Source: a virus
Lineage: Duplodnaviria > Heunggongvirae > Uroviricota > Caudoviricetes
Virus record (IMG/VR): IMGVR_UViG_2740892441_000001
Strand: one strand, 5' to 3'
DNA length: 64,000 nucleotides
The translations under genes were made by a program, and so were the position numbers. Shown piece by piece: positions 3,497-63,978 of this stretch (the stretch's first letter is position 1; each line of letters begins with the position of its first letter). The notes beneath the pieces are model-generated. The model was not told where the DNA came from. It was given only the letters and a program-made list of their open reading frames with translations, and searched no databases.

Positions 3497-3539
3497 TTCA
3501 CTCTCCGTAGTGTATTGGTTATTTTTATATTCTATGATC

Positions 3540-3555
3540 GTAAGTATGTACTTAC
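3540..3555. promoter_or_regulatory. palindrome GTAAGTA-TG-TACTTAC (operator-like motif B)
   Basis: Member of dispersed ATAAGTA-N-TACTTAT palindrome family. Confidence 0.3.
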
Positions 3556-3560
3556 AAAAC

Positions 3561-3588
3561 AAAAAAGCCCCGTAAGGATGGCGGGGCT
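3561..3588 (-). terminator. rho-independent terminator (GCCCCG..CGGGGC with U-run on minus strand)
   Basis: GC hairpin adjacent to A-run on plus strand; lies just downstream of gene 3623-3934. Confidence 0.5.
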
Positions 3589-5089: not shown

Positions 5090-5500
5090 GCTCACTCCTT
5101 CCAGAACGTTCTATACGGCAACTATTTCTGTTGGTGAATTGGGTGTGTTGTTTTCTCTGTCGGTGTATGTGGTTTCGTTCGTTTTGCGGTGGTTCTTCTA
5201 TAGGGTGTTCTCGTCGTTTTGGTGATTGTTCTTCTCCGTCTATGGAGTAATGGCAGGTGGGCGATTCCTTTCGTTATTGTGTTTGAGTTGTTTGTCTGGA
5301 GTGCGTGAAGGGCTTTTGTAGTTATTCGTGTATTGGGTAATGGCGTTTCCCGTGATTGTTCTGTTTCGTGTCTTTTGGGATTGAAGAATCCTTGCGGTAA
5401 CAGGCTTCGTTGGGGTTTCAGTGATTCTGGTGTTTCTTCGCTGTTTGGGTAATGGCGTGTCGTGGGTATCGCGCGTATGAATGTTTTCGGATTGCCTGTG
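5090..5500. repeat. G+T-rich low-complexity tract (plus strand), ORF-free
   Basis: Extreme strand compositional skew; the only ORFs are low-complexity minus-strand artefacts. Confidence 0.45.
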
Positions 5501-5590: not shown

Positions 5591-5980
5591 CATATGCGTT
5601 ATTTAGTTGTTTTGTTATGCCTGAAAATAAGTTGTTTATATGGTTATGTAACGCAACGGGAACGATTTTGAGCGTGTGTTTTTGTTGGTAGTGTGTTGGG
5701 TCGTCTGTGGTGAAAATTGGACGCTGTGGCGCTGTCTGCTGCGTAGGATTGCGGGTATAAGAAGTAATGTGTGAAAACGTCAATTTTTTAGACCAAATCG
5801 GGTGAAAGCGTTGACGTTTCGTTGATCTGTTATTCAGTTGTTTTCTTGTTTGTATAAACAACTATAACCTATTGATATTTAAGGGTGTGATTGCAGGTAT
5901 GGAAGGGGAGTAGTGGCGATCAACGGATTCTTATAGAAAAGAATCAAATTGTGACCGCCATTATCAATAAGTTGCAACCG

Positions 5981-6550
5981 TTAGTTGTTCAGATAAACAT
6001 TTGGAACACGGACGTAGAAGTTCCTGTCACCGGTAAGTTCCAGAGTAATGTTAATGTCATTACCATTGTCTAGTGTAGCCGTTGCTCTATAGAACTTATC
6101 CGTCACCTTGTCCTCTATTGTCACCTTCATACATTTTGGTGCAGTCGAACCGTTATTCTCTTTCAGAATAGTTGTCACGAGAGGGCAGGCTGCTTCTTCA
6201 AGAGCAACCTCGTCCTTGTGTGGGATGCCGATGAAGATAATCCAAGCCAGCGACGCAACGATTATGATAAATGGCACTCTGCTGCCTTTTGTAATAGTCG
6301 CGCGCTTCCAGAGATAGACAGGCAGGAGGAATACCCCCCATAGAATTGAAGGTGGTTCACAGCCAGACTCCGATAGAGCCATTCTGTCAGCTACTAACAA
6401 ACCGATGGTAGTTACACCCCCAATTATAATAGCGTAATTGGTATACTCTTCCGGCAATACTCCAAAGAAGAAAGGCATGAACGCTAGAATCCACGCATAA
6501 ATGTTATTCAGAGGTTTTGTTTGTTGGTTCTGGGTTTCCATCACATCCAT
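5981..6550 (-). CDS. hypothetical membrane protein (several hydrophobic segments)
   Basis: 189 aa with multiple hydrophobic stretches. Confidence 0.5.
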   Translation of the reverse strand: MDVMETQNQQTKPLNNIYAWILAFMPFFFGVLPEEYTNYAIIIGGVTTIGLLVADRMALSESGCEPPSILWGVFLLPVYLWKRATITKGSRVPFIIIVASLAWIIFIGIPHKDEVALEEAACPLVTTILKENNGSTAPKCMKVTIEDKVTDKFYRATATLDNGNDINITLELTGDRNFYVRVPNVYLNN

Positions 6551-6702
6551 TCCATCACATAAAAATCGCTTTTATATATTATCAATTTTCTCACTTGTAT
6601 AACCTAAATACGCATCCGTTTATCAATCCACCTTCCACAAACATCAGCTTTGGCTATGAAAAATGACAATCTCAAAGTGAAACCATTATCATAGGATAAC
6701 GA

Positions 6703-6888
6703 TTAGATGAGATGGTCTAATTCATCATCTATCATCGCTTTAACACTTGAGTCATTAACCCCGTATTGATTTATGAGCCGTTTCAGCTCCGGTGAAAACT
6801 GAAGGTAGATATCGTGGGCGTTTTTCACTGTAGGTTCAACGCCACGCATTTCAAGCGCCTTTAGTAGATATGAGTCTTCTTTAAGCAT
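6703..6888 (-). CDS. hypothetical small protein
   Basis: 61 aa ORF in operon context. Confidence 0.35.
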   Translation of the reverse strand: MLKEDSYLLKALEMRGVEPTVKNAHDIYLQFSPELKRLINQYGVNDSSVKAMIDDELDHLI

Positions 6889-6924
6889 AAATTCTCCGTT
6901 ATCTAGTATGAAGCGATTGCCGGA

Positions 6925-7233
6925 TTACCATTGCCAGCACTCAAGCCCTTCAACGACCGGTGCGCCACAATCAAAATGTACAGAGTCAAAGCCTACATCA
7001 AGTACTTTCTGAATGTTCGCAATCGCGCCCTCGGATATACCATATCGACGCAACTCATCTTTCCAGTCATCGTCCTGTAACCCGGCGTGGACAATGCAAC
7101 CGTACTCAATTTGTGAAACCCAATCCAGCTCATTGCTTGCGATCATGAATCGGCGAGCATCTTCCTCTGATGTATGAGATGAGCTGATCAATGCCACCTG
7201 GTAGGCTTGGGTAATGTTCAACATTTCAACCAC
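6925..7233 (-). CDS. hypothetical protein
   Basis: 102 aa ORF; promoter motif pair immediately upstream. Confidence 0.5.
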   Translation of the reverse strand: MVEMLNITQAYQVALISSSHTSEEDARRFMIASNELDWVSQIEYGCIVHAGLQDDDWKDELRRYGISEGAIANIQKVLDVGFDSVHFDCGAPVVEGLECWQW

Positions 7234-7238
7234 TCCGA

Positions 7239-7303
7239 AACAATTTGTTTTCTTATGTGGCTTATTATCTCAATCAACAAAAGGCAGAAAACAAATTGTT
7301 TTA
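7239..7303 (-). promoter_or_regulatory. two adjacent copies of the conserved promoter-like motif; the hairpin that usually follows is missing where host-like DNA begins
   Basis: AAACAATTTGTTTTCTTATGTGG...AAAAGGCAGAAAACAAATTGTTTT. Confidence 0.35.
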
Positions 7304-7337
7304 GGGTTTGTTAAAGTCAGAAGGGATTGTGTCTATA

Positions 7338-7372
7338 TGAAAATGCCCAGCGTATTGCCGGGCATTGTGAAG
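7338..7372 (-). terminator. metG terminator hairpin (AATGCCC..GGGCATT + U-run on minus strand)
   Basis: GC stem followed by TTTT on the metG sense strand just after the stop codon. Confidence 0.5.
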
Positions 7373-7385
7373 AATGGTTGCTTAA

Positions 7386-9419
7386 TTACTTAACCTGGTG
7401 GCCAGGTTTAGCACCAGCATCCGGGCTTAACAGGAAGATGTCTTTCCCGCCGGGGCCAGCAGCCATCACCATGCCTTCGGAGATACCGAAACGCATTTTA
7501 CGCGGAGCCAGGTTAGCCACCATAATGGTGTGACGGCCAATCAGTGCCTGTGGGTCTGGATAAGCGGAACGGATGCCTGAGAAGACATTGCGTTTTTCAC
7601 CGCCGAGATCCAGCGTCAGGCGCAGCAGTTTGTCAGAACCTTCAACAAAGTCTGCGTTTTCGATCAGCGCCACGCGCAGGTCAACTTTGGCAAAGTCGTC
7701 AAAGGTGATGGTTTCCTGAATCGGGTCGTCTGCCAGCGGGCCAGTAACTGGCGCGGCAGTAGCTTTCACTTCTTCTTTAGACGCTTCCACCAATGCTTCC
7801 ACCTGTTTCATGTCGATACGGTTATACAGTGCTTTGAACGGATTCACTTTATGGCCCAGCAGCGGTTGCTGGATACCATCCCAGGTCAGTTCTGTATTCA
7901 GGAATGCTTCTGCACGTTCAGTCAGTTTCGGCAGTACCGGCTTCAGGTACGTCATCAGCACGCGGAACAGGTTAATGCCCATAGAGCAAATCGCCTGCAG
8001 ATCGGCATCGCGTCCTTCCTGCTTCGCCACCACCCACGGAGCCTGTTCATCGACATAGCGGTTAGCCAGGTCAGCCAATGCCATGATTTCACGGATAGCT
8101 TTACCAAATTCGCGGCTTTCCCATGCTTCGCCAATCACTTCAGCGGCATCAGTAAAGGTTTTGTACAGTTGCGAGTCAGCCAGTTCGCTTGCCAGCACGC
8201 CGTCAAAACGCTTGTTGATAAAGCCTGCATTACGGGAGGCCAGGTTAACCACTTTGTTCACGATATCGGCATTCACGCGCTGAACGAAATCCTCCAGGTT
8301 GAGATCGATATCATCAATGCGCGAAGAGAGTTTCGCAGTGTAGTAGTAACGCAGGCTGTCGGCGTCAAAATGATTCATCCAGGTGCTGGCTTTAATAAAG
8401 GTGCCGCGAGACTTGGACATCTTCGCGCCGTTCACCGTCACATAGCCGTGAACAAACAGGTTGGTCGGCTTGCGGAAGTTGCTGCCTTCCAGCATGGCAG
8501 GCCAGAACAGGCTGTGGAAGTAAACGATATCTTTACCGATGAAGTGGTACAGCTCGGCGGTGGAGTCTTTCTTCCAGTATTCATCGAAGCTGGTAGTGTC
8601 GCCGCGCTTGTCGCACAGATTCTTGAAGGAACCCATGTAGCCAATCGGTGCGTCCAGCCAGACGTAGAAATATTTACCCGGCGCGTTCGGAATTTCAAAA
8701 CCGAAGTAAGGTGCGTCGCGGGAGATATCCCACTGTTGCAGACCAGATTCAAACCACTCCTGCATTTTGTTTGCCACCTGCTCCTGCAACGCACCGCTGC
8801 GGGTCCATGCCTGCAACATTTCGCTGAAAGAGGGCAGATCAAAGAAGAAGTGTTCAGAATCACGCATTACCGGCGTAGCGCCAGAAACTACCGATTTCGG
8901 CTCAATCAGTTCAGTCGGGCTGTAGGTCGCGCCGCAAACTTCACAGTTATCGCCGTATTGATCTGGCGCTTTACATTTCGGACAGGTGCCTTTCACAAAA
9001 CGATCCGGCAGGAACATGCCTTTTTCCGGGTCGTACAACTGAGAGATAGTGCGGTTTTTAATAAAACCGTTCTCTTTCAGGCGAGTATAGATAAGCTCAG
9101 ACAGCTGGCGGTTCTCTTCGCTGTGCGTCGAGTGATAGTTGTCATAGCTGATGTTAAAGCCTGCGAAATCAGTCTGGTGTTCCTGGCTCATTTCGCCAAT
9201 CATCTGTTCCGGTGTGATACCAAGCTGCTGTGCTTTCAGCATGATCGGCGTACCGTGGGCATCGTCGGCGCAGATGAAGTTGACCTCGTGGCCGCGCATT
9301 CGCTGGTAACGGACCCAGACATCAGCCTGGATGTGCTCCAGCATATGGCCGAGGTGGATTGAGCCGTTAGCGTACGGCAGCGCGCACGTCACCAGAATTT
9401 TCTTCGCGACTTGGGTCAT
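7386..9419 (-). CDS. metG: methionyl-tRNA synthetase
   Basis: 677 aa translation matches E. coli MetG along its length as recalled from memory ([31 protein letters not shown]...KPGHQVK); start set at the MTQVAKK ATG, upstream extension of the track ORF judged spurious. Confidence 0.95.
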
Positions 9420-10714: not shown

Positions 10715-11104
10715 CTACATCACAGGACAATCATCAAACTCGCCACTTCTTGCGTCGTTGATAATGTGAGTGATCACACCAAACACGGCATTGCTGCCCG
10801 TGCATCCATCATCATCCTTTGGCAATGCTTCCTTCTTACCAGTTCTTAAATCCTCCAGATGCTGACGTGGATACTTCCGGTATCTTTTTACGCGATATTC
10901 CCCATCCAGAGCACATACAAGAAGAGATCCATCAACAGGAGTGAGTGAGGAATCGACCACCAGCAATGCACCCTGCAATATTCCCTCACGATGATGACTA
11001 TCAGCCGCCCTCATGAAGTAGGTCGCTGAAGGATGTCTAATTATCTGCTGATCAAGAGAAATACGGCTCTCTGCATAATCCGCCGCAGGAGATGGGAAGC
11101 CCAT
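10715..11104 (-). CDS. humD: UmuD'-like S24-family protein lacking the cleavable N-terminal arm (HumD-like)
   Basis: Starts M-GFPSPAADY, aligned to Gly25 of E. coli UmuD (the RecA-mediated cleavage point); in-frame stop 5 codons upstream excludes an N-terminal arm; Ser and Lys of the S24 dyad retained; LexA box upstream. Confidence 0.7.
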   Translation of the reverse strand: MGFPSPAADYAESRISLDQQIIRHPSATYFMRAADSHHREGILQGALLVVDSSLTPVDGSLLVCALDGEYRVKRYRKYPRQHLEDLRTGKKEALPKDDDGCTGSNAVFGVITHIINDARSGEFDDCPVM

Positions 11105-11122: not shown

Positions 11123-11142
11123 TACTGTTTATATATACAGTA
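11123..11142. promoter_or_regulatory. LexA (SOS) box TACTGTTTATATATACAGTA
   Basis: Near-perfect CTGT-N8-ACAG palindrome about 20-40 nt upstream of the humD-like start. Confidence 0.65.
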
Positions 11143-16556: not shown

Positions 16557-16617
16557 GTGTTTTTCTCTTATCGTTTAGTTACTACATTCTTACACAAATT
16601 AAGTAAGTATTTACCTA

Positions 16618-18303
16618 TTATTTAACGCGTTTGAAAACGTATACGCTGACTGTGATCCCGGTATCTTCAAACTCGTTGGTAAACGACTTCCCTTTGGCAT
16701 AAACGTAATTATCCATCGTCATCCAGCTCAGGATTGGCGCAGTGCCCGGCAATACTGCTACAAGACGCCCGCCGACTTTCAGATGCCCCAGCGCAGCCAG
16801 CGTGTGCTCTCTATGACGACCAAGCGAGTACGGCGGGTTCATAACGATTTTGTCGAACTGATAACCTGCGTTGTCCTCAGACCACTTTATGAAGTCACAG
16901 CAAATCGTGTTCGTATACCCTTTTCCACGCAGGATATCAGCGAAGAGAGGTGCGATTTCTATGCAGGTAACATCTTCCAGATCGGCGTTAATATAGGCCA
17001 GAAGATCCCCACGTCCGGCTTGAGGCTCCAGCAGCTTCTCACCAGGCTTCAATTCAGTGGCTCTGGCAACGTACTCAGCAATCAAGCGTGGGGTAGGGTA
17101 GAACTGGTGTGATTTTGTATCCGGTATTAAACCGGTAGCCACAATCGTATTTAGCGTATGGCCGATGTCATACGGGAACTGCCAGTGCTTTTTCTCCTGC
17201 ACGCCGCCAATGAAGCTCAGTGTGCGCTCAAGCTCTTCCACCTGCGACTTCTGGAGAGCTGAATCAGAGAAGTACCATACGCCTTTGTCTTTGCTCAATC
17301 GCCCGTCACGAAGCGCAGTGCGAACCGGCACGGAGATCGTCTTCTGGATTAAACCGAACTGCTTTGGTGCCCGTGTTTTTGGCGCAGTTCGGCATGGCGA
17401 GGGGATTGCAGCAGGCATACTGTAAGCCAGCACCTCATTCAACTTCCAGGCCACGTCAGGATGTATTTCAAAGTGAACGTTGCCGTTCTTGAACATCTTC
17501 ACGCGCATCAGATTTCCATCGACGTTCATCCAGTCACCGGTCTGGCAGTCGTTTGCCCTATACGCAGCTGATAGCACCTCAGCAGTGCGGTTGATGGTAA
17601 TAAATTCTTTGTGCGCGAAGAAATGAAGCAAGACACGCAGATCGTCGATGTAGTCCTCTTTGCGATAGTTCACGCTAACGCTGTCCCGCCAGAAATCAGA
17701 AATGCAGTCAGCGATTATCAGACGCTCGCTGAAACCGTTTGTCTTATTTGTCTTGTGCGCAGGACTCAGCGCCTTAAACAAGCCATACACGCGCTCAGAG
17801 AGATATTTGTGCCTGTCATTCAGCAAATTAAGCATCGTGGGTATGACCGTTTCTGCTTTGAACTCCGGTACACCAACGAACTCTTTAACCTTCATCTGGT
17901 AGCCGGTTCTGTCGGTTTTGATGACTTCCTGTTTGCCCTCTATAAACTGCTCGCGCCACTCATCTCGACGGGAAGCTGGCATGATCAGCAAAACGTTAGT
18001 CATGTCCGTGACCTTCCTCCAGTACTCGGCCCAAATATTCTGTTTCACCCATTCCAGATCGACTTTATCCAGCCAAGCTCGATTCAAACGTGAGCGTTCT
18101 TCATCTGGTCGGTGGTTCAGTTGCAGCAGGCGATTAATCATGTTGTGGCGTTCGTCGCCATAAACGAAGTCGTGAACCTGGTACATGAAAGCGATCTCTT
18201 TCTCGCACTCGGCCACAATTTCGTGGATGACGTTCATTTCCTGCCGATAGTCGATAGCAGTGTTTGAGTTGGCATCGTCGATGATGGAAAGGGCTGTATT
18301 CAT
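16618..18303 (-). CDS. N6-adenine DNA methyltransferase, gamma-class motif order, with about 400 aa N-terminal region
   Basis: C-terminal FYPTP...LLEPQAGRGDLL...VMNPPY (motifs I and IV as in TaqI-like N6A MTases); no adjacent restriction gene recognised. Confidence 0.6.
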   Translation of the reverse strand: MNTALSIIDDANSNTAIDYRQEMNVIHEIVAECEKEIAFMYQVHDFVYGDERHNMINRLLQLNHRPDEERSRLNRAWLDKVDLEWVKQNIWAEYWRKVTDMTNVLLIMPASRRDEWREQFIEGKQEVIKTDRTGYQMKVKEFVGVPEFKAETVIPTMLNLLNDRHKYLSERVYGLFKALSPAHKTNKTNGFSERLIIADCISDFWRDSVSVNYRKEDYIDDLRVLLHFFAHKEFITINRTAEVLSAAYRANDCQTGDWMNVDGNLMRVKMFKNGNVHFEIHPDVAWKLNEVLAYSMPAAIPSPCRTAPKTRAPKQFGLIQKTISVPVRTALRDGRLSKDKGVWYFSDSALQKSQVEELERTLSFIGGVQEKKHWQFPYDIGHTLNTIVATGLIPDTKSHQFYPTPRLIAEYVARATELKPGEKLLEPQAGRGDLLAYINADLEDVTCIEIAPLFADILRGKGYTNTICCDFIKWSEDNAGYQFDKIVMNPPYSLGRHREHTLAALGHLKVGGRLVAVLPGTAPILSWMTMDNYVYAKGKSFTNEFEDTGITVSVYVFKRVK

Positions 18304-21437: not shown

Positions 21438-21582
21438 ATGGACTCCATCCAGTGTCAGAAAGAGTTGCGGCTGGCGATTGCCAGCCGCCTTTCTCGTTCC
21501 ATCCTGGAACTGTGTCTTACCGACACATTGTCATCCTGACGCCGATAAGATACATGATTTAAAATGATAGGTAAACACTTAC

Positions 21583-22176
21583 TTACTGCTTGTTATAAAC
21601 AAAACCAATATCTTTCTTGTGAGGCATATCTGCTGCGGAAAAAGCTGCGATCTTCGCGAGTCGATCACATATTTCATTTTCACGATGCCCGGCGTGACCT
21701 TTAACCCACTTCCAGCGAACATTATGTCGACTTGCGGCCTCATCCAGACGCTTCCACAGATCAACATTCTTTACCGGTTTTTTGTCAGAAGTCATCCATC
21801 CATTGCGTTTCCAGAATTTCATCCACTGTGTCATGCCGTTTTTCAGATACTGGCTATCAGAGTGCATAATAACGTTGCATGGATATTTCAAACGCTCCAG
21901 CCCGATAAGTGCCCCCATCATCTCCATGCGGTTATTGGTGGTGCTATGAAAACCATCTGAGAACTCGCGTTCCTCACCACGATACTGGAGAACTATACCG
22001 TAACCGCCCGGGCCACCCGGATTTTTAAGGCAAGAGCCATCACTGAAGATTTTCACGGTTTTAAGCTGGGGATTGAACTCTACGACAGGCGTTGTGGGAT
22101 TGGTGCGGGGAGAATTTTTGTTTTTGTCTTTTTTGCGAGTTTTTGCTTGCGACCGGGCTGGTGTCTTCGACGTCAT
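21583..22176 (-). CDS. rnhA: ribonuclease HI
   Basis: [10 protein letters not shown]...[11 protein letters not shown]...HSDSQY...[12 protein letters not shown] matches RNase HI; start set at ATG after AGGAG RBS. Confidence 0.75.
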
Positions 22177-23766: not shown

Positions 23767-23777
23767 CTTCTTTCTCG

Positions 23778-23797
23778 ATAGGTAAGTAAATACCTAT
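23778..23797. promoter_or_regulatory. palindrome ATAGGTA-AGTAAA-TACCTAT (motif B) just upstream of Dam RBS
   Basis: 7-bp inverted repeat. Confidence 0.3.
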
Positions 23798-23949
23798 TTT
23801 TGCATTTGATTTTATGTCTGGCAATCAAATAAAACGCGCCAGAAATGCAAACGAGAAGCTCTCTGGCGCGTTTTTGTGGTGCTGGGTATGTGATTGGCTT
23901 ACCCAGCACTATAAAGCTCTCTATGGGCTTTATTTTCAGTAGGGGAACG

Positions 23950-34056: not shown

Positions 34057-34129
34057 GTATCACCAAATAAAGAGGGCCACTATATTTAGTGGCCCATGTT
34101 AATAGATAAGCACTCACCTATCAATGAGA

Positions 34130-38672: not shown

Positions 38673-38785
38673 GTGTTTTTCCTTTGTGGTTATTTTGATA
38701 CAGATATTAAGTGTGTTTGAGAGGCGAACAATCCAGATAACACGGCCATTAAGAATGTTCACAGACACATGATTATGGCAAATTC

Positions 38786-38805
38786 ATAGGTAAGTGAATA
38801 CCTAT
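38786..38805. promoter_or_regulatory. palindrome ATAGGTA-AGTGAA-TACCTAT (motif B)
   Basis: 7-bp inverted repeat. Confidence 0.3.
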
Positions 38806-38898
38806 TTTTATGGGCAACAAAGATTTCTAGATGTTACAAGCCACTCTATAATCGCAGTCACTTAATGATGACAACCAAACGAAAAAGGAGAACTGACG

Positions 38899-40792: not shown

Positions 40793-40900
40793 CATCCACT
40801 ATGGAGAGCAAAGAAACCTCTGTAGAGAGCTGAATAACCGCTATGAAGAGTAAAACAACCACTCTGGAGAGCTGTATATATCCACTGTAGAGAGTAGAGC
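40793..40900. repeat. iteron array 1 (about five ~21 bp direct repeats, ACCACT.T.GAGAG-type)
   Basis: Direct repeats at regular ~21 bp spacing. Confidence 0.5.
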
Positions 40901-41171: not shown

Positions 41172-41300
41172 GATATCCACTATAGAGAGCGAATAATCCA
41201 CTATAGGGAGCAAAGCAACCACTATAGAGAGGAGAAAAACCACTATAGACGGTAGGATAACCGCTGTGATGAGTGCTACTATCCACTGTAATCAGCAAAG
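41172..41300. repeat. iteron array 2 upstream of repA (six ~21 bp direct repeats ATCCACTATAGAGAG-type)
   Basis: Regular direct repeats ending about 35 bp before the repA start. Confidence 0.6.
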
Positions 41301-41336: not shown

Positions 41337-42392
41337 ATGAGCGAAAACGGCAATAAAAACATAGCGATCGTTGAAGCATTTTCAGAAACAGATAAAAAGA
41401 CAGGCGAAGTTGTTACGTTGGTTCCTAACACTAATAACACTGTTCAGCCTGTTGCTTTGATGCGTCTGGGCCTCTTCGTTCCGACGCTGAAATCGACATC
41501 CAGAGGAAGAAAGGGGCAAATGGTCTCTATGGATGCCTCTGCTGAACTCAAACAGCTGTCTCTGGCAAAAGCCGAAGGGTACGAAGACATAAGGATCTCT
41601 GGCCTTCGGCTTGATATGGATAACGACTTTAAAACGTGGGTGGGAATAATCCACGCGTTTGCCAAACACAAGGTCGTTGGCGATACTGTCACGTTGCCGT
41701 TCGTTGAGTTTGTAAGGCTGTGTGGCATTCCGACCGCCAGGTCATCAGCGAAGTTACGCAAACGCCTGGACAGTTCGCTAAGCCGTATTGCCACAAATAC
41801 CATCTCGTTCCGTAGCAAAGGCTCTGATGAGTTTTACGTAACGCATCTTGTGCAAACGGCAAAATATAGTGTCAAGCACGATACGGTCGAACTGAAAGCA
41901 GATCCCAAGATTTTCGAACTCTACCAGTTCGACAAAAAGGTTCTTCTGCAACTCCGGGCTATAAACGAACTCTCAAGAAAAGAATCCGCTCAGGCGCTTT
42001 ATACTTTTATTGAAAGTTTGCCGCCTGATCCGGCACCAATATCACTAGCCCGTTTACGCGCCAGACTTAATCTGACAAGTCGCACTATTACTCAGAATGC
42101 GACGGTAAGAAAGGCTATGGAACAGCTGCGAGAGATAGGATATCTCGATTACACGGAAGTTAAGCGCGGAAACTCGGTCTACTTCGTCATCCACTATAGG
42201 CGGCCAAAGTTACGCCAGGCACAAATATCAACAAAAATCGATAATGATGAGACGGAATATAGCCTCCCAGATGAGAATCAAGATGACATTATCGACGTTG
42301 TGCCTGACGAAAAAGAAGGCAAAATGGTCATGTTGAGTAAAGAAGAACTGGCGCTTCTCGAAGAGTTGCGCAAGGCAAAGACTCGCAAATAG
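41337..42392 (+). CDS. repA: plasmid replication initiator RepA (P1/P7-type, iteron-binding)
   Basis: [16 protein letters not shown] and [19 protein letters not shown] resemble P1 RepA as recalled; flanked by iteron arrays. Confidence 0.8.
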
Positions 42393-45526: not shown

Positions 45527-45558
45527 GTGTTTTCCTATGTGGTTATTGTGTGCTAATG

Positions 45559-45574
45559 ATAAGTAAGTACTTAT
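45559..45574. promoter_or_regulatory. palindrome ATAAGTA-AG-TACTTAT (motif B)
   Basis: 7-bp inverted repeat. Confidence 0.3.
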
Positions 45575-45592
45575 ACATTTTCAACATACAAT

Positions 45593-50260: not shown

Positions 50261-50377
50261 GTGTTTCTCCTTGTTGTGATTTGGCCGATGGCGCTATGCG
50301 CGTTGGGCTTTCGTTCATTCGTGGCTCTTTCGAGCTGTTAAATGATAGATCAGTACTTACTTATTATCTATCAAAAA

Positions 50378-55700: not shown

Positions 55701-56278
55701 CGGACGTTAATCTGGTCGTAGAATGGGGTAGGGTGCGGATAAACCACGCTATAGAAGTTGTCTTTCCCGCCCGCTGTAATCAGTGAGCTTATGATTTTTG
55801 CAAAATCGTTGCGTTGGAACACGCTACCGATGTCGGAAGTGAGCAGGATGATGTTGCCTTTGGCATATGTAGAAACCAACTGTTCGAGCGAGAGACGCGG
55901 TACAAAGTAGAACTGTTCTCGTGTGTTGGCCACCGTCATTAGTTCGCAGATGTCGCGATATCCTTGCTCATTTTTAATTAGAGCGGTAAACGAGTAGTTA
56001 CGTCCCCGCTCTAATGATTCCATACATCTCATAGATTCTTTAGCAAGTTTAGCCCGGTGCTCGTATGTGGGATCATCAACGATATTTAGTTTCACACCAC
56101 AAATAACCGCCATGTCGTCACCAGCGGCACGTTGTAGTGGAATAACACTCGCAATATTCATGCTATCTGCTGAAATTACAGCGGTGTAGCCAGCTTCTCT
56201 GGCAATCTTCACCGCGTTTTCTGCTTTTAGAGCCGACTCCCCAAGTGAGAAGTCAGTTCGAACCATCAGTGCTTTCAT
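52761..56278 (-). CDS. dnaE: DNA polymerase III alpha-like (DnaE-type) polymerase, apparent frameshift near 54842-54878
   Basis: N-terminal ORF has PHP domain and GIPVGPGRGSSAGSLVAW..DPIRHGLLFERFINPER; C-terminal ORF has GLIKLDVLGLATL, GVFQLESGPM, FNKSHSVAYSLISYQSMWLKTHYPAEF. Confidence 0.8.
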
Positions 56279-59994: not shown

Positions 59995-60207
59995 TTAACA
60001 GATTCTGACGGCTAAAGACCCGGAGCCGGTATTGAGAAGCGTGAAGCGTTTGTTGTTAAGTTCGAATATAAATCCAGTTGTGTCATTCACACCAACCTGA
60101 ATCTGCTCATTCGGTAGATCGGTGAGGATGTCAGCTACACACTCATCAGCTAATTTCTGTACGTGTCCGATCTCAAGAGCGATTAGGCTGGAAATAGTGG
60201 TTTTCAT
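59995..60207 (-). CDS. hypothetical small protein
   Basis: 70 aa ORF. Confidence 0.3.
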   Translation of the reverse strand: MKTTISSLIALEIGHVQKLADECVADILTDLPNEQIQVGVNDTTGFIFELNNKRFTLLNTGSGSLAVRIC

Positions 60208-60384: not shown

Positions 60385-60412
60385 TTTACAACCCTAACCT
60401 TTGATGTAATAT
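60385..60412 (+). promoter_or_regulatory. sigma70-type promoter (TTTACA-16/17-TAATAT) for the HTH regulator
   Basis: -35/-10-like hexamers with suitable spacing upstream of 60459. Confidence 0.45.
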
Positions 60413-60413
60413 C

Positions 60414-60427
60414 GGTAAGCACTTACC
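60414..60427. promoter_or_regulatory. operator-like palindrome GGTAAG-CA-CTTACC at the regulator promoter
   Basis: Half-sites resemble the dispersed motif B palindromes. Confidence 0.4.
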
Positions 60428-60458
60428 AGAGAGAATTGAACGCGCAAAGGTTGTAACC

Positions 60459-60845
60459 ATGTCTGATAACAAGATTGAATTTATAGAAAGTCGCTACGCT
60501 GCTTTTATCGCAGGGTTGATTGAATCCTCACCTATGAGCCAGGCCCAGATAGCCAAAACAATTGGGTATAAAAACGCCAACAACCTTTCTTTAATTAAAA
60601 GCGGCAAAATTCCTTTGCCTATCGATAAGGTTCGTCCGCTGGCGCTGGCACTGGGTATTGAGCCAAGTCGTCTTATGATGATGGTGCTGGAAGAACGCCA
60701 ACCCGAACTCGCAGCATTTTTATACAAAGAAGGCACTGCTCCTCTTAACGAGGACGAAAAACAGGTTCTTGCTGCATATAACGAGCGATTCGGTAAAGAG
60801 AAAGGCGCATCACAAAAGGTTGTTGAGGCCATAAAGTCTCTATGA
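60459..60845 (+). CDS. XRE/Cro-CI-type HTH transcriptional regulator
   Basis: SQAQIAKTIGYKNANNLSLIKSGK helix-turn-helix; 128 aa. Confidence 0.65.
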   Translation: MSDNKIEFIESRYAAFIAGLIESSPMSQAQIAKTIGYKNANNLSLIKSGKIPLPIDKVRPLALALGIEPSRLMMMVLEERQPELAAFLYKEGTAPLNEDEKQVLAAYNERFGKEKGASQKVVEAIKSL

Positions 60846-61943
60846 AAAATTTACACGAATAAGCTCTGTTGATAGACGATCTCCCTTAAATTTGTGGTCA
60901 ATTTCGTCTAAATCCGGTTGCTCTACGATTGATGCGATGTACGTCGAGAAACTTTCTAAGGCGTCTCGCATCTCGTCCATATAATCGTGCCGGTCGTAGA
61001 CCCGATCTATCCCCTCAAGACTGTGGTTCATGATTTTACGTGATACCTCCTGGCTTATGCCTAATGCTGGGAAGTAACTACGCGCAGTACGGCGCAAATC
61101 TCGGGGTGTAAATGGCTCAAGCTCCATCAGTTCTGGTCGTTCCAGAATACGACGTAATGCCTGGGCTATTGCTACTTTAGACATAGGAAGGTCTTTCCCG
61201 ATTTTTTTATTCGAAGGCACGAGCCACTGGCTGTCTTTACCGTATTCGAACAACTCTTCAATGCATGTGCGCATTAATGTGCTTAAAGGCAGCGAATGCT
61301 CACGTGCTGACTTGTTTCTCTTGCCTTGATTCCAAACTCCACGCTTAAGATTGAACTCACTTTTTTTAGCCCGCAGTACTTCGTCAGGTCGTCTTGCTGA
61401 TACAAGACACAGCCTGGCCGCCCATTTTGTACCAGCGCACACATTGAAGTAGTCCCATACATTCCAGAACACCCATACCTCTGCGTCGGTCAGCTTCCGC
61501 TCGCGAGGCGTGGGCTTTGCGCCACCGGCAACTTTGTTTAGTGACATATCGTTTAACGGTGACACGTCTATCATCCCCTGGAAGGCGCACCAGCTAAGGA
61601 ACTGCTTCATCAGAGAGAAAACGCGGCGGCCCATAACAATTTTGCCATCCAGTATTAGTGGGTTGACCAGTTGGTTCACCATGAACCTATTAATGTCACT
61701 TACTTTTACATCGGCAATGTGCGGCAAAACATGTATCAAAATACAATGAACAGCGATCTCTGGCCGACGTCTTGTTATCAGCAGAGATAAGCGAGTGAAT
61801 AACATGAATGCGTCCGAGAATCTCATGTCATTGATAACCTGCGAGATCATAACGGCCTGCATTTGAGATGCTCTTTCGAGATACTCAATCGCTTCTTTTG
61901 AGGTGTTCTCCGCTGCGCGTGCTCTGTCAAAGCTATTTTTCAT
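60840..61943 (-). CDS. tyrosine recombinase/integrase
   Basis: C-terminal catalytic region SARRPDEV...HSLPLS...FTPRDLRRTARSYFP...NHS..GIDRVYDRHDY (R..K..H-R-H..Y pattern). Confidence 0.6.
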   Translation of the reverse strand: MKNSFDRARAAENTSKEAIEYLERASQMQAVMISQVINDMRFSDAFMLFTRLSLLITRRRPEIAVHCILIHVLPHIADVKVSDINRFMVNQLVNPLILDGKIVMGRRVFSLMKQFLSWCAFQGMIDVSPLNDMSLNKVAGGAKPTPRERKLTDAEVWVFWNVWDYFNVCAGTKWAARLCLVSARRPDEVLRAKKSEFNLKRGVWNQGKRNKSAREHSLPLSTLMRTCIEELFEYGKDSQWLVPSNKKIGKDLPMSKVAIAQALRRILERPELMELEPFTPRDLRRTARSYFPALGISQEVSRKIMNHSLEGIDRVYDRHDYMDEMRDALESFSTYIASIVEQPDLDEIDHKFKGDRLSTELIRVNFS

Positions 61944-61970
61944 ATGACAATCACCGAGTTACGCCGATGC

Positions 61971-61989
61971 ACTGTATAAGTAAACAGTA
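61971..61989. promoter_or_regulatory. LexA-box-like ACTGTATAAGTAAACAGTA upstream of the recombinase gene
   Basis: CTGT-N8-ACAG palindrome about 30-45 nt upstream of the start. Confidence 0.4.
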
Positions 61990-62125
61990 TGTTAGGCATA
62001 GATTCTTATAGGATCAAGAGTAAAAGTAACTCATTTTTACTAATGATTCCATACATAGTAGGTATGGAATCATTTAGACGTTGTTTTTTGAATTTTAAGG
62101 GAAATAGGAGTGAGTTTGGTGGGAA

Positions 62126-62150
62126 TAAAAAACGGCTCATGTGAGCCGTT
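62126..62150 (-). terminator. rho-independent terminator after the glutaredoxin gene
   Basis: ACGGCTCA..TGAGCCGT hairpin + TTTTTT on minus strand. Confidence 0.5.
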
Positions 62151-62968: not shown

Positions 62969-63055
62969 TGGCGGAGAGTAATGGAATCGAACCATCATCG
63001 CTTGCGCAATGGGACGGTTTTCAAGACCGCTTGAGCACCATGCTCTCTACTCTCC
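62969..63055 (-). tRNA. tRNA-Ser(TGA)
   Basis: Hand-folded: acceptor GGAGAGT/ACTCTCC, anticodon loop CTTGAAA, long variable arm, T-loop TTCGATT, encoded CCA; 87 nt. Confidence 0.7.
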
Positions 63056-63063
63056 AATTGTGT

Positions 63064-63139
63064 TGGTGCCGGTTAACGGATTCGAACCGCTGACATCCTG
63101 CTTACAAGGCAGGTGCTCTACCAACTGAGCTAAACCGGC
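63064..63139 (-). tRNA. tRNA-Thr(TGT)
   Basis: Hand-folded: acceptor GCCGGTT/AACCGGC, D-arm GCTC-AGTTGGTA-GAGC, anticodon loop CTTGTAA, T-loop TTCGAAT, encoded CCA; 76 nt. Confidence 0.8.
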
Positions 63140-63141
63140 AT

Positions 63142-63216
63142 TGGCGATGGTGGGTGGATTCGAACCACCGACCAGTTGGTTAACAGCCAACTGCTCTACC
63201 GCTGAGCTACACCATC
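63142..63216 (-). tRNA. tRNA-Asn(GTT)
   Basis: Hand-folded: acceptor GATGGTG/CACCATC, anticodon loop CTGTTAA, T-arm GGTGG-TTCGAAT-CCACC, encoded CCA; 75 nt. Confidence 0.8.
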
Positions 63217-63978
63217 AATTCGGCACTGCCAGTATTTTTTACTCAACAGTGCCAATCGCGACGGTTTAGTTTCTGCCAGGAAACGCACCGCTACTTGCAC
63301 TTTTCGTTAGTGCCAGACGCTTTCGACTTCGCTCAATAGTAGAAGGCAAAATCTTTAAGTAGATGATGTTTCTGAGGACAGCACCTACTTTGTAATTTAT
63401 ACAATGTGATGTATGGAATCATTTGTTGTGAAAACAGGCACCAATGGCAACAGTGGTTAAACCTACACAACAATCCTGTCTTCACAACGTTGAGGCCACT
63501 ACTCCGATTGAATGTTTGCCCAACATGTTACATATCAACGCTCGCCGGTATCTCTGTGAATAGAACCTTAGAATTGATAAAAATGTAATGGCCTCAACGT
63601 TGTGTGCTGGCTAACCATACCAGCCGGGCTACGTCGCCGCTTTTTAACCCAGTATAAACGACATAATTGAACAAAATGACGTAACAGGATGGGCGGTCAG
63701 TGGCTAAGAATCCGGGAGTCCATATGGGGTTGAAAATATACCAACCGCCCATTCTGTTACTTCATCGAATAGGGCATAGTGGTTTGGCTGTCTATGCCCT
63801 ATCCTGCGTTCTGCAATCACACTCGCTCAGTGTGTCCCATTTCGGTAACGAGGCTGGAAACTGACCTCGCTGGTGTTTGGCTTATTAGGCTACTGCCAGA
63901 TAGACTTCTTCGTTTGCACTTGTATTTAAGTTCAAACAGTCGCGTCTCAACGAAAACAAAGTCATCTTATACACAAAA

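Follow-up and report, generated by a model that had tools for sequence, protein, structure and literature searches.

A tyrosine recombinase with a LexA-boxed promoter and a candidate 13-7-13 core site on SSU5-supergroup phage-plasmids

The 64,000-nucleotide (nt) stretch of virus record IMGVR_UViG_2740892441_000001, hereafter the window, is an SSU5-supergroup (pSLy3-type) phage-plasmid of Escherichia coli. It carries a gene for a 367-amino-acid (aa) tyrosine recombinase which the literature searched names solely as 'integrase'. The locus is probably a self-contained recombination module, in which a LexA-repressed recombinase devoid of an arm-binding domain is paired with its own site, two 13-bp inverted arms around a 7-bp spacer (13-7-13), and acts on the phage-plasmid itself in the manner of Cre/loxP. 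Host LexA would repress the recombinase promoter, and DNA damage that removes LexA would raise expression. The enzyme would then act at a palindrome lying 98 bp upstream of its own start codon and would resolve phage-plasmid multimers, as Cre/loxP does for P1, possibly also serving cyclisation or recombination with other replicons that bear the same site. An earlier reading of the sequence (the original prediction) had pictured an element able to replicate as a plasmid and to recombine in response to SOS signals; the palindrome was absent from it. The closest characterised element is Escherichia phage Cyrano (plasmid pLF82 of E. coli LF82, genome 108 kb), 97.6% identical to the region. Coordinates are collected in Table 1.

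The recombinase and its candidate site

The assignment of the gene to the tyrosine recombinases stands, with a match to Pfam Phage_integrase (PF00589) at 39.7 bits against a cut-off of 27.1. The catalytic set consists of R185, K211, R281 (at the usual His position), R284, H307 and Y316; a comparison of 36 homologues shows no variation at R185, R284 or Y316 and very little at K211 or H307. Members of the family form a tight clade (E<=1e-88, 44-99% identity) and are encoded both by phage-plasmids and by large plasmids of Pantoea, Erwinia and Rahnella. Beyond the clade, the nearest sequence relatives (E 1e-37 to 1e-20) all bear the arm-binding domain PF13356, whereas the recombinase has no Pfam match to PF13356/DUF4102, a domain seen only outside its clade. 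The sole NCBIfam match is an integrase-domain model; the alignment to NF007246 enters this 413-position model at position 137, and its score of 33.8 falls far short of the cut-off, 434. The AlphaFold model of the protein (mean predicted local distance difference test, pLDDT, 83.8) matches the core-binding and catalytic domains of lambda Int, Tn1549 Int, XerA and XerH. Foldseek places lambda Int, Tn1549 Int and Xer structures at E ~4e-6, and a PDB sequence search with the recombinase returned no chain at E<=0.01. Judged from a clade without PF13356 and from these fold and sequence comparisons, the predicted protein is a two-domain 'simple' enzyme of integrase ancestry, not a relative of Cre. 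On the recombinase or its site, the literature searched offers only the general statement that SSU5-group phage-plasmids carry tyrosine recombinases.

The candidate core site is a perfect palindrome whose arms are far more constant than their surroundings. Across six lineages with ~74-76% DNA identity the 13-bp arms are conserved (12 of 13 positions in the Klebsiella right arm) and the 7-bp spacer differs. In a scan of 185,579 species-representative genomes the exact arms occurred at just seven loci, each with a recombinase homologue beside it. Among viral contigs the exact palindrome is found at 114 loci, and a homologue adjoins 107 of these; the remaining seven sites lie at the edge of the contig sequence. 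The association persists outside phage genomes, since in Chimaeribacter the arms are identical beside a protein ~57% identical, amid metabolic neighbours that include neither the neighbouring helix-turn-helix (HTH) gene nor any phage gene. Further, the site appears to change together with the protein. The arms stay the same in homologues with as little as 57% protein identity, and more distant homologues hold a 13-7-13 design 47-119 bp upstream of the recombinase gene in which both arms change symmetrically. The Klebsiella michiganensis type (59% identical) has the arms TGTGATTCCATAC ... GTATGGAATCACA, and in the 44-48% identical homologues of Pantoea, Xenorhabdus and Providencia, one of them on a 507-kb Pantoea plasmid and all with the palindrome at 47-98 bp, GATTCCATAC shifts to GACTCCAGAC within arms reading (T/A)(G/A)TGACTCCAGAC ... 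GTCTGGAGTCA(T/C)(A/T). The spacer is free, with at least 14 different 7-bp sequences. Conserved arms around a free, asymmetric 7-bp spacer are the architecture of core sites of the lox, FRT and dif type.

The exclusive association, the invariant arms, their symmetric change and the free spacer together tie the palindrome to the adjoining recombinase, of which we infer it to be the cognate target for binding and recombination. On the side away from the recombinase gene the right arm continues into a loosely conserved 24-nt motif, NARGGGCGnTTTTTTRAAWTYTRA, shared in position among 39 distinct right flanks, which may have an accessory function or supply a cargo promoter with its -35. As evidence against itself the original prediction had named a nearby resolution site and clustering of the recombinase with plasmid dimer-resolution enzymes. 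A resolution-type site is indeed there; the protein does not cluster with known dimer-resolution enzymes but forms its own clade, with PF13356 integrases next to it and with a fold closest to lambda Int and Tn1549 Int.

What the enzyme acts on can be approached from where the element lives. The region was matched in 612 plasmid records, mostly of Klebsiella, Escherichia and Yersinia, but also of Shigella and Salmonella. Of 5,426 complete E. coli genomes, 252 contain it, at 254 places, all of them on plasmids and none in the chromosome. As the element lives only as a plasmid, the phage-plasmid itself is most likely the substrate. No other site-specific recombinase is annotated in Cyrano, and a search of that genome for a XerCD dif/cer-like site yielded nothing better than a 17/22 match. 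By elimination, given a plasmid-only element with no other annotated site-specific recombinase and no Xer site, multimer resolution is the most likely physiological role. The Cyrano copy number is ~5.5 per cell (PMC9928086).

The LexA box at the recombinase promoter

A CTGT-N8-ACAG motif had been predicted upstream of the recombinase, and it is found 29-44 nt before the ATG. The bare pattern is within chance (0.84 matches expected, 3 found, a number that 4 of 100 shuffles also reach); the case for a LexA box is therefore built on its score, its position at the promoter and its conservation. A weight matrix gives a heterology index (HI) of 5.97, inside the range of 2.2-12.3 spanned by the 23 E. 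coli LexA boxes behind the matrix; all HI values are approximate. After shuffling, sites with HI<=9 number 0.04 per window.

Both hexamers of the predicted recombinase promoter (TTGATC-17-TAAYAT) are conserved in six lineages, and the LexA core begins 1 nt downstream of the -10. Lying directly after the -10, the box would cover the expected transcription start. It is kept in E. coli, Yersinia pestis pMT1, Salmonella, Klebsiella and Kluyvera, with HI values of 1.06-7.31 in other lineages, 7.95 in the O104:H4-type plasmid and 12.35 in a degenerate Buttiauxella version. Across lineages the AT-rich centre varies and CTGTAT and AACAGTAT are constant, a pattern expected of a LexA site. Among the related loci on viral contigs, a box of HI<=8 separates site and recombinase gene in 98 of 107, and a clade ~58% identical in protein also has one there, in differing surroundings.

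In the whole Cyrano genome only two boxes fall below HI 10, that of the recombinase and a near-consensus one in front of a umuD-like gene. A third LexA-like site, at position 40870 of the window (HI 10.67), was rejected, as it overlaps the repA iteron array and ends in ACTG, not ACAG.

Published expression data for Cyrano agree with this, although indirectly. Between 6 h in medium and 6 h in macrophages, a setting that the authors of the RNA-seq study describe as SOS-inducing, recombinase RNA rises from log2 6.07 to 10.30 (19-fold) and that of the umuD-like gene from 9.09 to 12.22, with polIII unchanged and most replication and structural genes steady (PMC9928086, Table S1). With the box conserved at the promoter and the gene rising alongside the umuD-like gene, the recombinase is very probably under LexA/SOS control, as had been proposed, and the box, a putative LexA binding site, is very probably functional. 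An intrinsic-terminator-like hairpin further upstream would shield the promoter from upstream transcription.

Two side observations concern the same promoter and the same data. The Chimaeribacter recombinase promoter is free of LexA boxes, and a good box (HI 5.1-5.6) instead fronts a gene of 211-221 aa that is convergent with the recombinase gene. In Cyrano, CYRAN_50/51 (HicAB), CYRAN_26/27 (KacT) and CYRAN_60/61 rise 10-40-fold in macrophages at 6 h with no box below HI 10 (PMC9928086, Table S1), so that part of the element's macrophage response is independent of the LexA box.

Multimer resolution and its alternatives

Isolated copies of single arms occur at a distance from the palindrome, and their arrangement is regular. 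Outside the palindrome, arm 11-mers number 154 against 0.5 expected (~118 loci, 1.1 Mb). All 66 copies to its right are in right-arm orientation and all 88 to its left in left-arm orientation, so that the inner ends point toward the palindrome. The copies lie 0.5-7 kb away and fall into ~9 sequence families on the right and two orthologous positions on the left; ATC follows most of the families. One orthologous copy falls within the recombinase gene itself (codons V-W-N-Q-G), another within that of polIII alpha. Transcription does not explain this polarity, because its direction is the same for the genes to the left and to the right. Isolated copies were recorded in the window, at Cyrano 37801, at loci L004, L013 and L025 and at ~110 viral-contig loci. 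No convincing sigma-70 promoter was found by eye at the isolated copies or for a leftward 70-aa gene that lies beyond the HTH gene. An inversion between the palindrome and the arm copy at 63411 was considered and rejected, as the full-length matches listed all align as one colinear piece.

Several observations sit poorly with a LexA-repressed, Cre/loxP-like resolution system. A simple resolution model leaves these palindrome-facing half-sites unaccounted for, and it is not obvious why a housekeeping function such as resolution should be under LexA control. The box is missing in Xenorhabdus, Providencia, Pantoea and one clade of 56-60% identity, and its scores are approximate. As a test of SOS induction the macrophage RNA-seq is not clean, and its counting was apparently not strand-specific. 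As to the protein, the usual first catalytic His is an Arg (R281), at a position outside the listed conserved columns, and the fold is nearer to lambda Int and Tn1549 Int than to Cre, which Foldseek returns at E>=1e-2.

The most variable part of the locus lies beyond the right arm. Forty-one loci share the identical ATAGTAG site and fall into eight right-flank classes. On the recombinase side the left 250 nt are 96-100% identical among seven of the eight classes, three of them at 100%, and 81-82% identical for the eighth, L102. On the other side the right 100 nt of different classes are only 53-68% alike, with divergence from the first base after the right arm. This flank pattern fits crossovers within the site between different site-bearing replicons. 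Among all 118 loci there are 39 distinct right flanks. A search for a second full or degenerate site bounding the cargo found nothing above chance (a score of at least 17/26 occurs ~5 times per shuffled window), and with no second site at the cargo a cassette mechanism of the integron kind is not supported. In Y. pestis Nepal516 pMT (locus L002, coordinates 5189-5221 and 5850-8722) the caf1 operon starts directly past the recombinase site, and in E. coli ij001 p2 (locus L025, 3691-7747) a different chaperone-usher fimbrial operon occupies the slot, near an insertion sequence (IS) remnant and an isolated arm copy.

An additional role, compatible with Cre/loxP-like resolution, would be the SOS-gated capture or exchange at the site of the genes beyond the right arm, for which the LexA-controlled intI of integrons with its adjoining attI is the closest analogue. 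This is possible, although we regard it as doubtful. It would account for the order of recombinase gene, LexA-boxed promoter, site and variable genes, and for identical sites with eight unrelated right flanks joined exactly at the arm edge. The slot content itself ranges from nothing through CYRAN_43, YafO, a DUF6645 protein, an usher operon and microcin immunity to caf1, and the positional 24-nt motif shared by distinct right flanks is expected if these came from other site-bearing replicons. However, no second full site flanks any cargo, and the far boundary of the difference between the window and Cyrano lies inside the 3' end of grx, where there is no site. The cargo consists of ordinary genes in either orientation rather than attC-type cassettes, and a conserved module beside a permissive intergenic region would also resemble a hotspot.

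A second compatible proposal concerns regulation and starts from the gene on the other side of the recombinase. That the gene predicted originally as Cro/CI-like encodes an HTH regulator is supported by PHROG 8, 'transcriptional regulator' (E=1.3e-11), although Pfam HTH matches stay below cut-off (HTH_19, 19.7 vs 30.2), and the Cyrano homologue, CYRAN_45, is listed as a putative repressor, among the master repressors of lysogeny. Described earlier as both convergent with and divergent from the recombinase, the HTH gene is convergent with it, with a 6-bp overlap, and divergent from the 70-aa gene. The 3' overlap is kept in every examined phage-plasmid lineage, down to 44% identity. The HTH gene's own promoter and operator-like palindrome also withstood comparison: both are invariant in seven lineages, in surroundings of 77% mean column identity, although the promoter scan by itself is no evidence (1 site found vs 7.7 in shuffles). 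The palindrome belongs to a dispersed family of ~24 bp, consensus TGATAGGTAAGTACTTACCTATCA, with 17 matches to its 12-nt core against 3.9 expected; no shuffle reaches 17. Of 13 distinct positions, 11 lie outside open reading frames (ORFs) of at least 90 aa. The member at 60409-60432 overlaps the start of the HTH-gene transcript, and none is found at the recombinase promoter. By analogy, such a family would suit putative master-repressor operators over many early promoters, after the manner of P1 C1.

With the 3' overlap, a LexA-controlled promoter and no terminator stronger than a weak hairpin (60619-60603) behind the recombinase gene, transcription could run antisense through the repressor gene. 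On this basis we tentatively consider that a LexA-controlled transcript, passing through the recombinase gene, antisense over the repressor gene and into the 70-aa gene, may be the SOS input of the lysis-lysogeny switch. Repressor output would be lowered by transcriptional interference or antisense RNA, and an early function would be expressed. The element is SOS-inducible, with a 39-fold induction of Cyrano by ciprofloxacin (PMC9928086) and mitomycin C induction tried on SSU5-like phage-plasmids in the literature, yet the 128-aa HTH repressor has no S24 cleavage domain and no HTH+S24 repressor is present among the annotated Cyrano regulators checked. Candidates for such a cleavable repressor were rejected: CYRAN_114 is an FljA-like flagellin repressor, and CYRAN_98, the homologue of ORF 10715-11104, is UmuD-like with S24 only. 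That the recombinase has one of just two boxes below HI 10 in Cyrano, that its promoter lacks an operator of the HTH family, and that the convergent layout is constant down to 44% identity all agree with the proposal. After 6 h in macrophages expression stands at log2 10.3 for the recombinase, 9.9 for the HTH gene and 10.8 for the 70-aa gene, and at 5.9 for the next gene; the 70-aa gene is co-induced with the recombinase in Cyrano (PMC9928086, Table S1). Nevertheless, the argument is one of layout, with RNA-seq counts not known to be strand-specific. Cyrano virions were not above background in macrophages despite the induction of the recombinase and 70-aa genes, Xenorhabdus and Providencia keep the convergent HTH gene without a LexA box, and an unrecognised antirepressor could exist elsewhere.

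Both additions could hold at once. The locus would then be an SOS-gated platform at whose site modules are captured or exchanged, which would be how lineages came by toxin-antitoxin genes, fimbrial operons and, in pMT1, the caf1 operon; the same transcript would aid induction by running antisense to the repressor gene, and the arm copies would form a layer of guidance or control. Such a combination appears unlikely.

The palindrome might instead be a transcription-factor operator. It has the recombinase promoter on one side and a possible cargo promoter, reading rightward, on the other, and in lineages where it is 43-58 bp from the recombinase start it would overlap the recombinase promoter. 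We judge this very unlikely: the recombinase gene is its only constant companion, the HTH gene being missing in Chimaeribacter and Pantoea; the likely operator of the HTH protein is a different motif; and 13-bp arms around a freely variable 7-bp spacer fit lox, FRT and dif rather than HTH operators. Autoregulation by the recombinase at its own site would be compatible with the Cre/loxP-like reading too.

Hardly any credence is left for an integrase that inserts the phage-plasmid into the chromosome on SOS, for instance at a tRNA gene, although its relatives outside the clade are PF13356-bearing integrases, its only NCBIfam match is an integrase-domain model, its fold is closest to lambda Int and Tn1549 Int, and tRNA-Asn, Thr and Ser genes, the typical kind of target of P4-type integrases, lie 1 kb away. 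Integration, as read from the original prediction, was not borne out: none of the 254 copies in complete E. coli genomes is chromosomal; the site is palindromic and beside its own gene, not tRNA-derived; and among att/dif-like sites sought near the tRNAs, which are complete genes, only the isolated arm copy at 63411 was found. The enzyme has no arm-binding domain, and no site-only copy with perfect arms that could serve as a chromosomal attB exists in the 185,579 species-representative genomes, the recombinase gene always adjoining the seven palindromes. In the literature, phage-plasmids are typically without integrases, and rare chromosomal copies are not integrase-directed.

Known systems and neighbouring features

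The resemblance to Cre/loxP of P1 (with relatives such as Dre/rox of D6) is one of design. Both are tyrosine recombinases of plasmid prophages without an accessory arm-binding domain, with a simple site of two 13-bp inverted arms and a short asymmetric spacer close to the recombinase gene, and with multimer resolution and cyclisation as expected roles. In contrast, no sequence similarity was detected, and in the Foldseek comparison Cre comes after lambda Int, Tn1549 Int and the Xer proteins. The spacer here is 7 bp rather than 8, and the one-sided 24-nt extension, the LexA-boxed promoter and the arm copies kilobases away set the locus apart.

The promoter of the integron integrase IntI is reportedly repressed by LexA. 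IntI/attI thus shares with the present locus a LexA box at a tyrosine recombinase promoter and a simple site directly upstream, followed by variable accessory genes. However, no attC-type cassettes and no second site were seen here, the cargo being ordinary genes in both orientations, and the proteins are not close, with 2a3v ranking 29th in the fold comparison. The closest sequence relatives outside the clade are the P4-type integrases (P4 Int, CP4-57 IntA; NF007246/PRK09692, PF13356), which have in common with the recombinase the C-terminal motif at the catalytic Tyr, RVYDRHDY followed by a helix. Unlike them, the present system has no N-terminal arm-binding domain, no tRNA-derived att site and no chromosomal copies.

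TnpI/IRS of Tn4430, XerS/difSL and XerH/difH each consist of one tyrosine recombinase and an inverted-repeat core beside its own gene, and in this the present pair is like them. TnpI has extra recombinase-binding repeats on one side of the core, which bias the reaction toward resolution. Here, by contrast, the one-sided extension is just a loose motif and the exact arm copies lie 0.5-7 kb off, not within ~100 bp; further, the sequence relationship to TnpI, XerS and XerH is only at superfamily level.

The pair is an uncharacterised addition to the systems of simple tyrosine recombinases with inverted-repeat sites, set apart by probable SOS control, a hypervariable slot and site-facing arm copies. 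Assigning a cognate site turns an 'integrase' annotation into a testable recombinase/site pair, which, if active, would be a new simple-site recombinase unrelated to Cre by sequence, with at least two natural arm specificities (GATTCCATAC and GACTCCAGAC) and tolerance of many spacers. The main slot for accessory genes in these phage-plasmids, which in Y. pestis holds the F1-capsule operon, has the site as its exact boundary. Through LexA control, DNA damage of the kind caused by the quinolone antibiotic ciprofloxacin would be coupled to recombination and perhaps to prophage induction.

Table 1. Features of the recombinase locus, of the rest of the window and of related loci (positions in the window unless another locus is named)
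Feature	Position	Strand	Remarks
Tyrosine recombinase gene, 367 aa	60840..61943	minus	homologue of Cyrano CYRAN_44; core-binding and catalytic domains
Candidate core recombination site	62042..62074		AATGATTCCATAC-ATAGTAG-GTATGGAATCATT; perfect 13-7-13 palindrome, 98 bp upstream of recombinase ATG
24-nt extension, loosely conserved	62075..62098	plus	side away from recombinase gene
LexA (SOS) box, recombinase	61970..61989		CACTGTATAAGTAAACAGTA; core CTGT-N8-ACAG 61972-61987; HI 5.97
Predicted recombinase promoter	61989..62017	minus	-35 TTGATC 62017-62012; 17-nt spacer; -10 TAACAT 61994-61989
Intrinsic-terminator-like hairpin	62131..62150	minus	ends upstream grx operon
Exact 13-nt arm copy, right-arm orientation	63411..63423	minus	~195 bp upstream of tRNA-Asn
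Exact 13-nt arm copy, left-arm orientation	56013..56025	plus	inside polIII-alpha coding sequence
HTH (XRE-type) gene, 128 aa	60459..60845	plus	CYRAN_45 homologue; no peptidase domain
HTH-gene promoter and operator-like palindrome	60385..60432	plus	TTTACA 60385-60390; 16-nt spacer; TAATAT 60407-60412; core GTAAGCACTTAC 60415-60426
TGATAGGTAAGTACTTACCTATCA-family palindromes	3538-3561, 16597-16620, 21565-21588, 23776-23799, 34100-34123, 38784-38807, 45557-45580, 50343-50366, 60409-60432, others		mostly intergenic
70-aa gene	59995..60207	minus	CYRAN_46 homologue, PHROG 2627; divergent from HTH gene; same strand as recombinase gene
UmuD-like gene, 129 aa	10715-11104	minus	CYRAN_98 homologue; S24 peptidase domain only
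LexA box, UmuD-like gene	11123-11142		TACTGTTTATATATACAGTA; near-consensus, HI 1.17; 19 bp upstream of ORF 10715-11104
Chimaeribacter boxes and ORFs	L010 182-201, ORF 226-861; L012 7189-7208; L015 7683-7702, ORF 6999-7664		
repA, Rep_3-type	41337-42392		21-bp iterons upstream
Two 21-bp iteron arrays	40794-40896 and 41177-41249		CCACTATAGAGAGC...; upstream of Rep_3-type repA
tRNA cluster	62969-63216		Ser, Thr and Asn genes
Inverted repeats around tRNA cluster	62889-62908/62947-62966; 63483-63502/63585-63604; 63676-63697/63744-63765		
Cargo slot, this window			empty; grx terminator directly next
Cargo slot, Cyrano			CYRAN_43
Cargo slot, pGD31-F25 and Klebsiella			YafO toxin-antitoxin; Klebsiella also microcin immunity
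Cargo slot, O104:H4 plasmid			DUF6645 protein
Cargo slot, ij001 p2			fimbrial usher operon
Cargo slot, Y. pestis pMT1			caf1 F1-capsule operon

In Cyrano, CYRAN_43, which occupies the slot there, is expressed at 723 times background. Elsewhere in the window, the iteron-plasmid replicon that had been predicted is present, a Rep_3-type repA preceded by 21-bp iterons. The three-tRNA cluster ~1 kb from the recombinase was likewise found, with all three genes intact; in an Rfam scan only tRNAs reached significance. The cluster is flanked by three long inverted repeats with arms of 20-22 nt, 91-95% complementary and 38-82 nt apart, and two of the three have the motif CACA(G/A)CGTTGAG in common.

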